Positions 48,904 to 52,548 of a DNA stretch of 64,000 bases are shown one piece after another. Origin of the DNA: Thermoanaerobaculia bacterium (GTDB taxonomy: Bacteria > Acidobacteriota > Thermoanaerobaculia > UBA5066); NCBI GenBank assembly GCA_963719225.1, contig CAVRAY010000002.1, positions 128,001 to 192,000 of the forward strand, given 5' to 3'. The position numbers and the translations under genes were made by a program. Under the pieces are notes generated by a model. It ran no database searches. It was not told the origin of the DNA and saw only the letters and a list, made by a program, of their open reading frames with translations. The stretch's first letter is position 1; every line of letters begins with the position of its first letter.

Positions 48904-49755
48904 TCAGCTCTCTTCCACCCACTCGGGCGTCACGCGGCGGGGAAGAGCTCCCACGGCGTGTCCGCGCTCGAGAAGAAGCCGCACGGCTTCGCGTCCTTTG
49001 TCTCCATAGGAGCGCGTCCACTCGTTCACGTACATGGCGACGAAGCGGTCGGCCTTCTCGCGCGGAAGGCCGCGCGCGAACCGCATCGCGTCGGTGAGGG
49101 CGTCCTCGCGATGGTCGAGAGCGTAGGTGATGGACCGGCCGAGGGCGCGCGACACGCGGGCGATCAGCTCCGGCCCGAGGTCCCTGCGCACGGCGTTGCC
49201 TCCGAGCGGCAGCGGGAGAGAGGTCTCGGCTTTCCAGACGACGCCGAGGTCCGCCACGAGGTGGAAGCCTTCGTCCTTCCACGTGAGCTGGCCCTCGTGA
49301 ATGACGACGCCGGCGTCCACGTCCCCGCGCGTCACGGCCTCGCCGACCCGGTCGAAGGGCGTGACGACGGGAATCGAGAGAGGAGCGTAAATCGTGAGCG
49401 CGAGAGCCGCGGACGTGAGACGACCGGGGATCGCGACACGCCTTCCGGCGAGATCGGAGAGCGTGCGCGGCGCGTCGGCGGCCTCGCGGGCGACCACGCA
49501 CGGGCCGTACCCGTCGCCGAAAGACGCGCCGTGCGGCAGGAGAAGGTAGCGGTCCGCGAGAAAGGCGTACGCGTGAAAGGACACGGCCGTGATCGCGAGC
49601 TCGCCCGAGAGTGCGCGCGTGTTGAGCGTCTCGATGTCGGCGAGCTCGTGCCGATACGAGACGCCTTCGGTGTCGACTGCGTTCTCGCGAAGCCCGTAGA
49701 ACATGAAGGCGTCATCCGAGTCGGGCGAGTGGGCGAGGACGAGCGTCTCGTTCAT
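48904..49755 (-). CDS. mqnD: 1,4-dihydroxy-6-naphthoate synthase (futalosine menaquinone pathway)
   Basis: AHSPDSDDAFMFY, DIETLN, SFGDGYGP, IHEGQLT, LPLPLG, MYVNEWT. Confidence 0.9.
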   Translation of the reverse strand: MNETLVLAHSPDSDDAFMFYGLRENAVDTEGVSYRHELADIETLNTRALSGELAITAVSFHAYAFLADRYLLLPHGASFGDGYGPCVVAREAADAPRTLSDLAGRRVAIPGRLTSAALALTIYAPLSIPVVTPFDRVGEAVTRGDVDAGVVIHEGQLTWKDEGFHLVADLGVVWKAETSLPLPLGGNAVRRDLGPELIARVSRALGRSITYALDHREDALTDAMRFARGLPREKADRFVAMYVNEWTRSYGDKGREAVRLLLERGHAVGALPRRVTPEWVEES

Positions 49756-49858
49756 GCGATGTCTCCGAATCTCCACGTCACGCGATCGTAGCCCGGATGC
49801 GCGACGCCGGTCGTGCGGCGTCGCGAAGGAAGGCGGGTGAAAAAAACTTCGCACGTCA

Positions 49859-49898
49859 AGAAAAAAATTCTTGATTCGTGCTCGAAACTCTCTACAAT
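49859..49898 (+). promoter_or_regulatory. Sigma70 promoter with UP-like A-tracts driving the K-rich mini-ORF transcript
   Basis: A-tracts at ~49840 and 49861-49867; TTGATT (49871), 16-nt spacer, TACAAT (49893). Confidence 0.65.
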
Positions 49899-49909
49899 TC
49901 GTTCAAGAA

Positions 49910-50056
49910 GAAAAAAGGACGGCGAGGCGATCACGAGTCGCTTCACCGTCCTTACGGAAACCCCGAGCTCTTTTGAAATCGATCGGCGACGAAAATTTTC
50001 TGGTTTTTTCGGCAGTCGACAGATTCGGAAAACGCGAGGTCCCCGTCCTTCGAGGG
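49910..50056 (-). ncRNA. Predicted ~145-nt structured cis-antisense small RNA (unassigned family)
   Basis: It has its own promoter (50063-50092) and an intrinsic terminator. An internal long hairpin ACGGGGACCUCG/CGGGGUUUCCGU relies on G-U pairs that only form on this strand; the apical stem is CGAAAA/UUUUCG. Confidence 0.6.
49911..49953 (-). terminator. Intrinsic terminator on the minus strand
   Basis: AAGGACGGTGAAGCGA-loop-TCGCCTCGCCGTCCTT followed by a T-run (plus-strand aaaaaa at 49911-49916). Confidence 0.7.
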
Positions 50057-50062
50057 GCGGCC

Positions 50063-50092
50063 AACCTAGCACGCGGCTTTCGGGACTGTCAA
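50063..50092 (-). promoter_or_regulatory. Sigma70 promoter on the minus strand
   Basis: Perfect TTGACA (50092-50087), 18-nt spacer, extended -10 TGc-TAGGTT (50068-50063). Confidence 0.65.
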
Positions 50093-50123
50093 TCAAATCT
50101 GCCAGGAGGAGGTGACAGACCAC

Positions 50124-50186
50124 ATGCCGGCTAAGAAGAAGGCTGCCAAGAAGAGCACCAAGAAGGGGAAAAAGGGTAAGAAGTAA
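50124..50186 (+). CDS. 20-aa lysine-rich peptide MPAKKKAAKKSTKKGKKGKK
   Basis: Below the ORF-track cutoff. Very strong SD AGGAGGAGGTGA 8 nt upstream, ATG...TAA, and a terminator just downstream. Confidence 0.8.
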   Translation: MPAKKKAAKKSTKKGKKGKK

Positions 50187-50230
50187 GTACCCACCTTCAA
50201 ACTGTTCCATTCAAGGTATTTCCGGGATTC

Positions 50231-50258
50231 GGGGGCTGGACCAGCCCCCTTATTTTTT
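50231..50258 (+). terminator. Rho-independent terminator after the mini-ORF
   Basis: GGGGGCTG-GAC-CAGCCCCC followed by TTATTTTTT. Confidence 0.88.
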
Positions 50259-50329
50259 GCCCGCGCGTTCCCGATCACGCCGCCAGGGCACAGGTTTTCC
50301 ACAGGCGATTCCAACCCTTATGCACCCCG

Positions 50330-50349
50330 GTATATAAACTTTTATATAC
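50330..50349. promoter_or_regulatory. Perfect AT-rich inverted repeat, probable PadR operator
   Basis: GTATATAAA-CT-TTTATATAC ending 7 nt before the PadR ATG. Confidence 0.65.
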
Positions 50350-50356
50350 TTGTTTC

Positions 50357-50866
50357 ATGTCCCTTCCGCACGTCCTTCTCGGGCTCCTCGGACGTGGCCC
50401 GGCGAGCGGATGGGACCTCGGAACGCGGCTCGCCGCCGAGCCTTCTTTCGGCTGGAGCGCAGACCTCGCGCAGGTCTATCCCGCGCTCCGCCGTCTCCTG
50501 CGCGGCGGCTTCGTGGCGCTTCGGAGGCGGCGCTCCTCCAAGGGACCGCCGAGGCGCGAGTACCGTCTCACTGCCGCCGGCCGCCGGGAGTTCCGCGAGT
50601 GGCTCGCCGAGCCGCTCGAACTTCCCAAGGCCCACGCCGCGTCGCTCGTGAGGCTCGCGTTCCTCGAGAAGCGCGCCCCCGAGGCACGGCTCGCCTCCCT
50701 CCAGCTCTACCGCGGACTTCTCGCCGACGAGCTCGAACGCGCCGCGCCCGGCACCACGGCCGCGCGAAGGAGAAGGCTGGTGCTCCTCGAGGCGGAGCTC
50801 GCCTGGGCGGACGGCGAAGCCGCCGCGATCCTGGCCGGGCGTACGCTCTCGAAGGGAATCCGATGA
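50357..50866 (+). CDS. PadR-family transcriptional regulator
   Basis: MSLPHVLLGLL, SGWDL, QVYPALRRL, YRLTAAGRREFREWL. Confidence 0.9.
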   Translation: MSLPHVLLGLLGRGPASGWDLGTRLAAEPSFGWSADLAQVYPALRRLLRGGFVALRRRRSSKGPPRREYRLTAAGRREFREWLAEPLELPKAHAASLVRLAFLEKRAPEARLASLQLYRGLLADELERAAPGTTAARRRRLVLLEAELAWADGEAAAILAGRTLSKGIR

Positions 50867-52548
50867 CCGCACGCGAGGCGCTCCTCACGCTCGAGAGACT
50901 CCGGACCGCCGCGGGCGAAGACGCGGCTCTTCGGAAGAGAGCCTGCCTCGCGGTCCTCGCGCGGCGGTCCCTTCGCGGCGCGCGCCCCGTGGCGCGCCTC
51001 CATGAAGCGCTCTGCTACCTCCGCGCCTATCCCGACGACGCCGGGGTCCTCACAGACGTCGTCGGGATGCTCGCGCGCTTTTCACAGCGCCACGACCTTC
51101 GCCGCGCCCGCCGCGTGCTCGAAAGCTCCGGGATCGCGGGCACGGCCATCCGCTTTTCCTTCTACGCCGGCACGGCCCGCTGGCTCGCCGCGCGGTGGGG
51201 GAACCGCCTCACGGTCGACTGGAAGAAGTTCGCGAACGCGGACGCGCTCGAGGGCGTGTTCCCGCTCATCTCGCTCTTCGCCGAGACTCCGGGACTCGAC
51301 GAGCTGGACCTCGGCGTCCGCGGCTGGGTGAAGCGCCTGAAGGGGCCTCTCGAGACGGACGCGGTGTTCCTCGTCCGCCGGCTCGCGACGCTCGGACGCG
51401 ACGCCTTCGAGAACGAGTGGGCCTACGAAGGGCTCGAGCTGCCGCTGGTCCTCGCGCCCGGGAGGGACGGCCCTTCGCGCACCCAGGCCGCGATCCCCGT
51501 CCCCGCCGTCAGCTTCCAGACCGCGCCGCTCGACAGCGGCCGGCCGGACGTCGCGCGCGAAGTCGCGGTCCCGCCCCTGCGCGTCGTGCCCGCGCGCGGC
51601 GACGAAGCCGGACGCCTCCTGGACCTCGCGCGCGAATCCATGGTCACGAGAGAGCGCGATCTCGACGTCTTCCAGTGGGGCGACCGCCGCGACGTCCGCC
51701 TCGCGCACTTTCCGGACGGCCTCACGTTCGTCGTGATCGGCGCGGTGCCCGAGCGGCGTCTCCTCCTCGAGTCCGTCTACGGCTTCCTGACGCTGAAGAA
51801 CGGCGTCCCCGTCGGCTACGTCCTCGTGAGCGCGCTCTTCGGGTCCTCGGAAATCGCGTACAACGTCTTCGAGACGTTCCGGGGCGGCGAGTCGGGCCGC
51901 ATCTACGGAAAGGTCCTCGCGTTGACCCGGCACCTCTTCGGCCCGGACGTGTTCACGATCTTCCCGTACCAGCTCGGCGGCTACGGCAACCCGGAGGCGC
52001 TCTCTTCCGGCGCGTGGTGGTTCTACCAGAAGCTCGGCTTTCGGCCGAGGGCCCCTCACGTCGTGGCTCTCATGAACGAGGAGCTCGTCCGGATGAAGGC
52101 GGACCCGAAGCACCGGTCGTCCCTCGCCACACTGAAGGTCCTCGCCTCCGAGAACCTCTATTTCCACCTCGGGAAAGAGCGCGACGACGCGATCGGTCTC
52201 CTCGAGCTGCCGAACGTGGGACTCACCGTCACGGACATGCTGGCGCGGCGCTTCGGCTCGGACCGCGAGCGCGCCGAGGCCGTCCTGACGCTCGAGGCGC
52301 GCGATCTCCTCGGCCTCCGGTCCCTGTCGGGCTGGAGCTCGGGCGAGCGGCTCGCCTTCCGGCGCTGGGCTCCCCTCGTCACGATCCTGCCGGGGCTGGC
52401 GCGCTGGTCCGCGGCCGAAAAGCGTGGCCTCGCCGCCGTCGTGAGAGCCAAGGGAGGCCGGCGCGAGTCGGACTTCGTGCGCCTCTTCGACCGCCACCGG
52501 AAGCTGCGCCGGGCGATCACGTCGCTCGCGCAGGGCGAGCCGACCTGA
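50863..52548 (+). CDS. Conserved-looking hypothetical protein with a GNAT-like C-terminal motif
   Basis: ATGA overlap with PadR; 561 aa; NVFETFRGGES...SGAWWFYQKLGFRP. Confidence 0.75.
   Translation: MTAREALLTLERLRTAAGEDAALRKRACLAVLARRSLRGARPVARLHEALCYLRAYPDDAGVLTDVVGMLARFSQRHDLRRARRVLESSGIAGTAIRFSFYAGTARWLAARWGNRLTVDWKKFANADALEGVFPLISLFAETPGLDELDLGVRGWVKRLKGPLETDAVFLVRRLATLGRDAFENEWAYEGLELPLVLAPGRDGPSRTQAAIPVPAVSFQTAPLDSGRPDVAREVAVPPLRVVPARGDEAGRLLDLARESMVTRERDLDVFQWGDRRDVRLAHFPDGLTFVVIGAVPERRLLLESVYGFLTLKNGVPVGYVLVSALFGSSEIAYNVFETFRGGESGRIYGKVLALTRHLFGPDVFTIFPYQLGGYGNPEALSSGAWWFYQKLGFRPRAPHVVALMNEELVRMKADPKHRSSLATLKVLASENLYFHLGKERDDAIGLLELPNVGLTVTDMLARRFGSDRERAEAVLTLEARDLLGLRSLSGWSSGERLAFRRWAPLVTILPGLARWSAAEKRGLAAVVRAKGGRRESDFVRLFDRHRKLRRAITSLAQGEPT

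Follow-up and report, generated by a model that had tools for sequence, protein, structure and literature searches.

Between an mqnD-like and a padR-like gene of a Thermoanaerobaculia bacterium lies a conserved, unannotated micro-gene for a lysine-rich peptide, whose long leader carries a well-supported antisense promoter and terminator and, plausibly, a refolding switch. That the micro-gene is real is almost certain, and an antisense RNA is likely to be transcribed within its leader. We further consider it somewhat probable that this RNA represses the peptide, and reasonably probable that the peptide is a polycation that binds nucleic acids, and neither a ribosomal protein nor a toxin. The combined reading, in which translation of a micro-gene for a histone H1-tail-like polycation is turned off by a cis-antisense RNA, is one that we favor tentatively and would stop short of calling probable. 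The peptide gene is near-universal in its order (Acidobacteriota; Thermoanaerobaculia; UBA5066) and has relatives in several phyla, yet it has been missed by gene callers. A sequence-only reading of this DNA had proposed an RNA-controlled nucleoid-condensing or ribosome-binding micropeptide, or else a non-membrane type I toxin; the unannotated micro-gene and its conserved antisense promoter and terminator have stood, whereas the toxin has become a weak candidate and no support emerged for a ribosomal peptide. Positions given here are those of the window, that is, the whole stretch of 64,000 nucleotides that was analyzed.

The micro-gene and its transcription unit

The gap between the two flanking genes measures ~600 bp, and the entire unit occupies about 420 bp of it. 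UP-element-like A-tracts (49840-49869, plus strand) precede a sigma70-type promoter, TTGATT-16-TACAAT (49871-49898, -10 at 49893-49898), with a predicted start at about 49905; a palindrome, TCAAGAA-N5-TTCTTGA (49856-49874), lies over the -35 element and is, like the A-tracts, conserved in the family alignment. The palindrome is a possible repressor or activator site, and several loci of family f3 have a perfect CAAGAAATATTTCTTG at this position. This promoter is the only promoter-like site between 49300 and 50800 (shuffled sequences gave 0.1 +/- 0.3), and the pattern TTG..16-18..TAVANT is present at 48/49 loci. By eye, a second, tandem sense promoter (TTGACW-17/18-VANAAT) is seen 230-250 nt upstream of the ORF in the family f2 loci L035-L041, L044, L046, L048 and L050. 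The leader of the mRNA is ~220 nt long, the sense transcript folds more stably than its shuffles (z -3.49), and the unit ends at an intrinsic terminator (50231-50258, plus strand; stem 50231-50249 followed by a T-run) that is conserved in relatives with compensating stem changes. The A-tracts, the promoter and this terminator had all been listed in the sequence-only reading, and each is present and conserved. Just 5' of the terminator stem, TTTCCGGGAT(T/A)CGGGGG (50205-50230) is conserved across family f1 beyond the needs of a terminator.

The divergent neighbor (48904-49755, minus strand; PF02621 VitK2_biosynth, E 2e-66) is an mqnD-like gene of the futalosine menaquinone pathway, with a likely -10 of its own, TACGAT, at 49785-49790 (minus strand). 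Downstream follows a padR-like regulator gene (50357-50866, plus strand; Pfam PadR, E 6.5e-13), which also adjoins the cassette in relatives and is probably outside the peptide/antisense system. A palindrome conserved in relatives, GTATATAA-N4-TTATATAC (50330-50349), sits just 5' of the padR-like gene and is likely its autoregulatory operator. A 561-aa ORF further downstream (50863-52548) had no Pfam or NCBIfam match at E<=1.

The micro-ORF (50124-50186, plus strand; ATG at 50124, stop at 50184-50186) encodes the 20-aa peptide MPAKKKAAKKSTKKGKKGKK behind the Shine-Dalgarno sequence (SD) AGGAGGAGGTGA (50104-50115, plus strand), whose GGAGGTG is invariant in 36 aligned sequences. Just as first described, 11/20 residues are lysine; the peptide has a mass of 2.2 kDa and a net charge of about +10.5, and with a GRAVY of -1.98 it is strongly hydrophilic. 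A small hairpin is predicted to fold across the stop codon (50174-50192, plus strand), and similar inverted repeats were seen by eye, uncounted, in relatives. Orthologues are 18-28 aa long, their indels are all in frame, and both TAA and TAG serve as stops. Variable sites fall 1/2/9 on codon positions one to three among 10 distinct coding sequences of the genus (8 codons silently changed, 2 with a changed residue) and 4/3/13 among 20 distinct f2 sequences (9 silent, 4 residue-changing). Lysine is written AAG 721 times versus AAA 56 times, the sum of lysine and arginine is 11 in 61/70 loci (range 10-13), and the family peptides use K, A, T, G, M, S, P, V and R only, with arginine almost absent, no aromatic residue and no other fixed non-lysine residue. 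Taken together, changes concentrated at third positions, indels that keep the frame and swaps of the stop codon show that a predicted peptide of 18-28 aa is under coding selection.

This gene has indeed escaped gene callers, as had been suggested: besides the coding-type conservation, 0/10 family peptides looked up were present in a collection of ~15 billion proteins. The 20-mer had no match to any Pfam or NCBIfam family, and the family profile retrieved 0 PDB sequences at E<=10 from a library that excludes chains under 20 aa. No paper on the gene or the RNA was found in the open literature searched; subscription papers and supplements (for instance tables of predicted RNA motifs or small proteins) could contain one.

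RNA libraries are consistent with expression of the unit. Eight RNA runs from eight studies, out of 23 listed and found using the stretch itself, were examined, and the libraries of 7/8 studies yielded contigs with 0-5 differences inside 49928-50253, the libraries being unstranded and possibly containing DNA. A contig of run X17 (49928-50158, likewise unstranded) bridges the leader and the start of the ORF. The near-identical pieces listed for X15, X17 and X19 leave mqnD and padR uncovered, although gaps in contig cover prove nothing. Contigs of X10 cover both flanks and cross the sense promoter, and a piece from X8 (50115-50312, 11 differences) extends past the terminator, so that DNA or read-through is possible.

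The antisense promoter and the predicted leader switch

Inside the leader, the minus strand carries the promoter TTGACA-18-TGCTAGGTT (50063-50092), with its -35 TTGACA at 50092-50087 and an extended -10, TGC-TAGGTT, at 50071-50063; it had been noticed from the letters of the window, and its elements recur at every informative relative. Such a site arose on either strand in 5/20000 dinucleotide shuffles of the leader. The 4.75 Mb genome holds ten promoter sites of this form, two of which are the cassette copies, and two more precede genes that we take to be rplU and tRNA-Ala. Whole-region BLAST gave a set of 50 loci, 49 of which extend to the leader, and all of these (49/49) keep TTGACA, TGC and TAnnTT at a spacing of 17 or 18 with variable spacer sequence; there are seven -10 variants, all TAnnTT, and they vary only at -10 positions 3-4. 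On the sense strand, TGTCAA is invariant while its partner strand in the sense hairpin varies in 17/49 loci, always in a G-U-compatible manner. Since TGTCAA never varies and its partner does, the constraint on the antisense -35 exceeds the needs of pairing.

Further along the minus strand lies an intrinsic terminator (49905-49953), in which a hairpin at 49917-49951 is followed by the U-run TTTTTTCTT (the plus-strand A-tract 49905-49916), about 147 nt from the predicted start and thus close to the ~145 nt of the first estimate. At least five T within nine positions follow the stem on the minus strand in 65/69 distinct loci and on the plus strand in 0/69; in f2 and f3 this evidence is not independent, because the minus-strand U-run overlaps the A-rich sense -10 region. 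Wobble pairs in this hairpin favor the minus strand as well, 37 to 13. The sequence-only reading had taken the hairpin for the first of two sense leader hairpins; it behaves as a minus-strand terminator, although it can also form a sense 5' stem-loop. The predicted cis-antisense RNA would hence run from 50056 to 49908 on the minus strand, about 147-149 nt with both ends predicted, and its predicted length across loci is 102-149 nt. Rfam gave no match at the gathering score in the window and none meaningful by E-value; two hits below threshold, on hairpins resembling terminators, are attributed to chance. When six relatives were examined, their cassettes likewise had no match. Identity with 6S RNA or SRP RNA was rejected, both genes being elsewhere in the genome.

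The second leader hairpin also exists, but it is larger than had been drawn: this long hairpin, P3 (50011-50103, plus strand), reaches the SD, is the predicted ON fold, and has the antisense promoter as its 3' arm. The predicted antisense RNA covers the 5' arm and the apical loop of P3 and leaves the SD outside. The basal helix is paired in 100% of 36 sequences, with double changes from G-C to A-U and from C-G to U-A and with every single change giving G-U on the plus strand. Wobble in the arm alignment favors the plus strand, by 45 to 26, in the genus only; outside it the count is balanced (27 to 26). Swap tests of the ON arms were modest (76, 223 and 655 of 5000 permutations). The 66% pairing of the apical helix is uninformative, because the helix follows the register of f2 and is out of register for f1.

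From this arrangement we derive the following mechanism. Without the antisense RNA, the 5' arm of P3 would sequester the 3' arm, so that SD and AUG stay relatively accessible (ON). The antisense RNA would pair with the apical loop and the 5' arm without touching the SD, and the freed 3' arm could refold over SD, AUG and the first codons (OFF). The ~147-bp sense/antisense duplex may also be a substrate of RNase III, and collision of the two convergent polymerases could add to repression. As the peptide would be produced in bulk from a strong promoter, quick shut-off might be worthwhile.

Folding predictions on related sequences support this ON/OFF switch, but do not show it. With the antisense-covered part masked, the ribosome footprint is predicted to be harder to open in 41/46 leaders and easier in 0, and opening of the SD by itself is harder in 29/46 and easier in 2. 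In 35/37 leaders the site is occluded more strongly by the native 3' arm than by shuffled versions of that arm (mean z 3.6 in the genus, 0.9-1.8 elsewhere), a measure to be read with the tendency of a freed GC-rich arm to raise occlusion anyway. In f1, native pairs of arm and ribosome-binding site beat swapped ones (6 of 5000 permutations), CUGUCA of the arm pairs with UGACAG behind the SD, and the spacer letters of the arm track the SD-AUG spacer. The same test of the OFF fold failed in f2, where 4846/5000 permutations scored as high and chimeras were slightly stronger than natives, and in f3 (1348/5000 as high). The f2 arm has CAYCUC, the complement of GAGGUG, in 35/35 loci. The swap tests drew on at most 20-22 random f2 sequences and three of the genus, and all permutation counts overstate, because related genomes are not independent. 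Identical sequences were counted once, and the folding counts leave out L029 (contig end, no leader) as well as L016 and L017 (ORF cut by the contig end). The predicted OFF fold, with the 3' arm over SD and start codon, has covariation support in the window's family only.

Distribution of the cassette and alternative readings

The exact pattern of antisense promoter and SD occurs once per genome in 71/74 other genomes of the order (24/27, 43/43 and 4/4 by family; 70/73 without the unpublished genome G037, one of the 43) and in 0/226 other genomes of the class. Among the three order genomes lacking it, mqnD is cut at a contig end in G022 and has no match in G019 and G031, and so all three may reflect assembly gaps. 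ORF, SD and promoters proved to be conserved across the genomes of the order, in keeping with the original proposal, and a DNA match to the region was found in 52/61 genomes, the source genome included. The source assembly holds a second cassette copy (C2:640142-640630). On C2 of this assembly (G000), ~101-223 kb and ~688-608 kb form a long inverted syntenic duplicate of 70-85% identity that contains this second copy, and assembly contamination is 6.2%; a true paralogue was therefore rejected, and the duplicate block is probably a segment of a sister species within the assembly. In the source genome a covariance model recovered the two cassette copies and nothing else; in 80 other genomes, a set with no known positive and with only 46 candidates scored per genome, it recovered none, a negative of little weight.

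A pattern of SD plus start alone occurs in 20/301 genomes of the phylum, two of the hits being the N-terminal ends of proteins of 307 and 510 aa and not micro-genes, and at 113 loci among GTDB contigs. The order-type antisense promoter accompanies 81 of these loci and is absent from 32, one of which is cut by a contig end. Named records bearing the cassette are mostly Thermoanaerobaculia or Acidobacteriota. The 32 loci include peptides of 12-68 aa in records of Acidobacteriota, Nitrospirota, Eremiobacteraceae, Dormiibacterota and Methylomirabilota, and H1-like proteins of 100-120 aa in Steroidobacter-type records; pure ATKKK repeat proteins of 35, 80 and 105 aa were found as well. At many loci outside the order, TTGACA-16/18-TATATT stands about 60 nt upstream, giving a ~55-nt leader with no antisense promoter. 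The peptide is thus an end member of a series of H1-tail-like sequences of graded length, to which this order has added the long leader and its antisense promoter. Homology across phyla is suggested by the pattern and, owing to low complexity, not proven.

Several observations stand beside this survey. Tandem lysine-rich micro-ORFs, each with its own terminator, occur at L115:1510-1830 and at L144, L151 and L188. In other Acidobacteriota (L100, L101, L104, L105) the short-leader peptide gene often lies 3' of a sigma-54 response regulator gene. L198, a contig of 5.4 kb recorded as Acidithiobacillales, carries an order-type cassette, probably through mis-binning. No plasmid match was found, and the one phage match, of 35 nt, is ascribed to chance. 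A looser pattern of promoter and SD gave 93 matches in viral contigs, of which only two (one sequence) precede a lysine-rich ORF; in these, L254 and L304, TTGACA..TGCTA on the opposite strand lies directly 5' of an SD and a 20-aa Lys/Gly ORF, MAKKGKGKGKGGGKGKGKGC.

We consider it unlikely that the peptide gene is real and works with no trans-acting antisense RNA, the minus-strand signals then acting by transcriptional interference, or the invariant UAGCA/UGUCAA being an RNA-level site in the hairpin, where a bound ligand or protein, perhaps the peptide, would flip the same ON/OFF folds. The antisense promoter letters do sit inside a covarying sense hairpin, the T at -10 position 5 never varies, a constraint that the sigma70 consensus does not call for, the 5' arm in f1 has an upstream helix as a possible competitor in cis (by eye), and the RNA contigs are unstranded. 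Yet the fixed 17/18 spacing, free spacer and variation confined to -10 positions 3-4 are a promoter signature, the same promoter form precedes other genes of the genome, and 102-149 nt further on the minus strand preserves a terminator dedicated to this promoter.

The same leader control could serve a small ribosome-associated basic protein of the type of bTHX, bS22 or eL41, which we judge to be quite unlikely. Size and charge would fit, as would the very strong SD, the single copy that is near-universal in the order and the 11 positive charges in 61/70 loci. Against it, neither PDB chains nor family profiles match, arginine is almost missing along with aromatic or other fixed non-lysine residues, family length varies from 12 to 105 aa, and no ribosomal gene is found among 70 neighbor ORFs scanned.

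Also quite unlikely, in our estimate, is that the minus-strand promoter serves mqnD from upstream and under attenuation, with 49905-49953 as a regulated attenuator and the leader overlap as a by-product of compact intergenic space. The N-terminal motif of mqnD lies upstream of the cassette in 69/69 distinct order loci and thereby places mqnD downstream of the promoter on the same strand. A candidate -10 of its own, a TAnVAT hexamer at most 110 nt from the mqnD start motif, is nonetheless present at 59/69 loci, f3 (0/6) being the group in which none was found and in which this account gains. It also loses by the 13 mqnD loci of other orders that have no peptide cassette within 1.5 kb, by the absence of an Rfam riboswitch match and, on inspection, of an antiterminator conserved beyond the genus; an antiterminator pairing through the AAGGACGG repeat, seen in the window, was dropped as it is not kept outside the genus (by eye).

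Type I toxins are typically small, hydrophobic and membrane-acting, SymE excepted. It is improbable that the present locus is a type I toxin-antitoxin system whose toxin, a polycation acting away from the membrane, would arrest growth by coating nucleic acids. Membership in this class is not supported, because the peptide is hydrophilic (GRAVY -1.98) and the locus is single-copy in fixed mqnD/padR synteny rather than mobile or repeated. Plasmid matches and real phage matches were both absent from the searches above, and in other lineages relatives express a like peptide behind a consensus promoter and a leader of ~55 nt that has no antisense promoter; apparently the peptide can do without an RNA antitoxin. 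What speaks for a toxin is, at sequence level, an antisense gene with its own promoter and terminator complementary to the mRNA, placed as in ldrD/RdlD inside a long 5' UTR with the ribosome-binding site uncovered (PMC4147584), and the lethality of the histone-like HctA in E. coli unless IhtA is co-expressed (PMC3469542).

A lysine-sensing leader-peptide attenuator was rejected, given that the gene downstream is padR-like within the order, with unrelated genes in its place in other lineages, and that no hairpin linked to the ORF overlaps the terminator in the predicted fold.

Comparison with known systems

Returning to the polycation under antisense control, the peptide would act as a disordered, charge-neutralizing ligand of the nucleoid or of RNA; DNA binding we infer from its composition. 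The lysine/alanine repeat proteins of the H1-like type, among which the AlgP tail is named, offer a close likeness: like Hc2 (PF07382), NF038053 and the AlgP tail, the peptide is an AAKK/ATKK/PAKK low-complexity sequence, basic and made of Lys, Ala, Pro and Thr, within a length series of 12-105 aa whose longer members (35-105 aa) are pure repeats. It differs in comprising only one to two repeat units and no folded domain. The nearest named profiles are H1-like but weak (for an 80-aa relative, NF038053 gave E 4.5 and 7.5 bits, the cut-off being 80), the 20-mer matched no curated H1-like family and nothing scored above any cut-off; HC2 was present in 17% of an Atlas cluster at 0.91.

A wider reading, which is speculative and on the unlikely side, would make the peptides a widespread, unannotated class of free "histone-tail" micro-peptides acting as gene-encoded polyamine or nucleoid-compaction agents, under an RNA-operated condensation or dormancy switch in abundant soil bacteria. 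In the same reading, the gene would have acquired a three-in-one element in this order: a single 30-bp stretch that is the antisense promoter as DNA and, as RNA, serves as the hairpin's 3' arm when ON and as anti-SD when OFF.

The layout itself has precedents. The ldrD/RdlD and hok/Sok loci combine a small ORF, a long structured 5' UTR and an antisense RNA inside that UTR that does not overlap the ribosome-binding site, which is the small-ORF, long-leader, internal-antisense arrangement met here (PMC4147584). Unlike our hydrophilic, single-copy and syntenic case, their toxins are small and hydrophobic and their loci often repeated, and their control is proposed to act via an upstream ORF, whereas refolding of an anti-SD arm is predicted here. 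Were the combined reading right, an antisense-in-leader layout that is usually read as a type I toxin locus would serve a housekeeping-like polycation. In repABC, a ctRNA transcribed from its own promoter changes the fold of a leader stem-loop that would otherwise keep SD and start codon unpaired (PMC3155836); we predict leader refolding by such a cis-antisense RNA here as well. That ctRNA, in contrast, targets the plasmid initiator repC and induces a terminator, while the present locus is a chromosomal micro-gene whose predicted OFF fold occludes initiation.

HctA has about 125 aa and IhtA is trans-encoded, whereas here a 20-aa peptide is paired with a predicted cis-encoded RNA that leaves the SD uncovered, and the two share no sequence family match. 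The likeness lies in a small RNA paired with a lysine-rich, histone-like product: in Chlamydia, the sRNA IhtA represses translation of the lysine-rich, histone H1-like HctA (Hc1) (PMC3469542). The predicted antisense control of the peptide gene is the new element, and if it operates in this way, free-living soil bacteria would possess, in minimal and cis-encoded form, a counterpart of the circuit that HctA and IhtA make up in Chlamydia.
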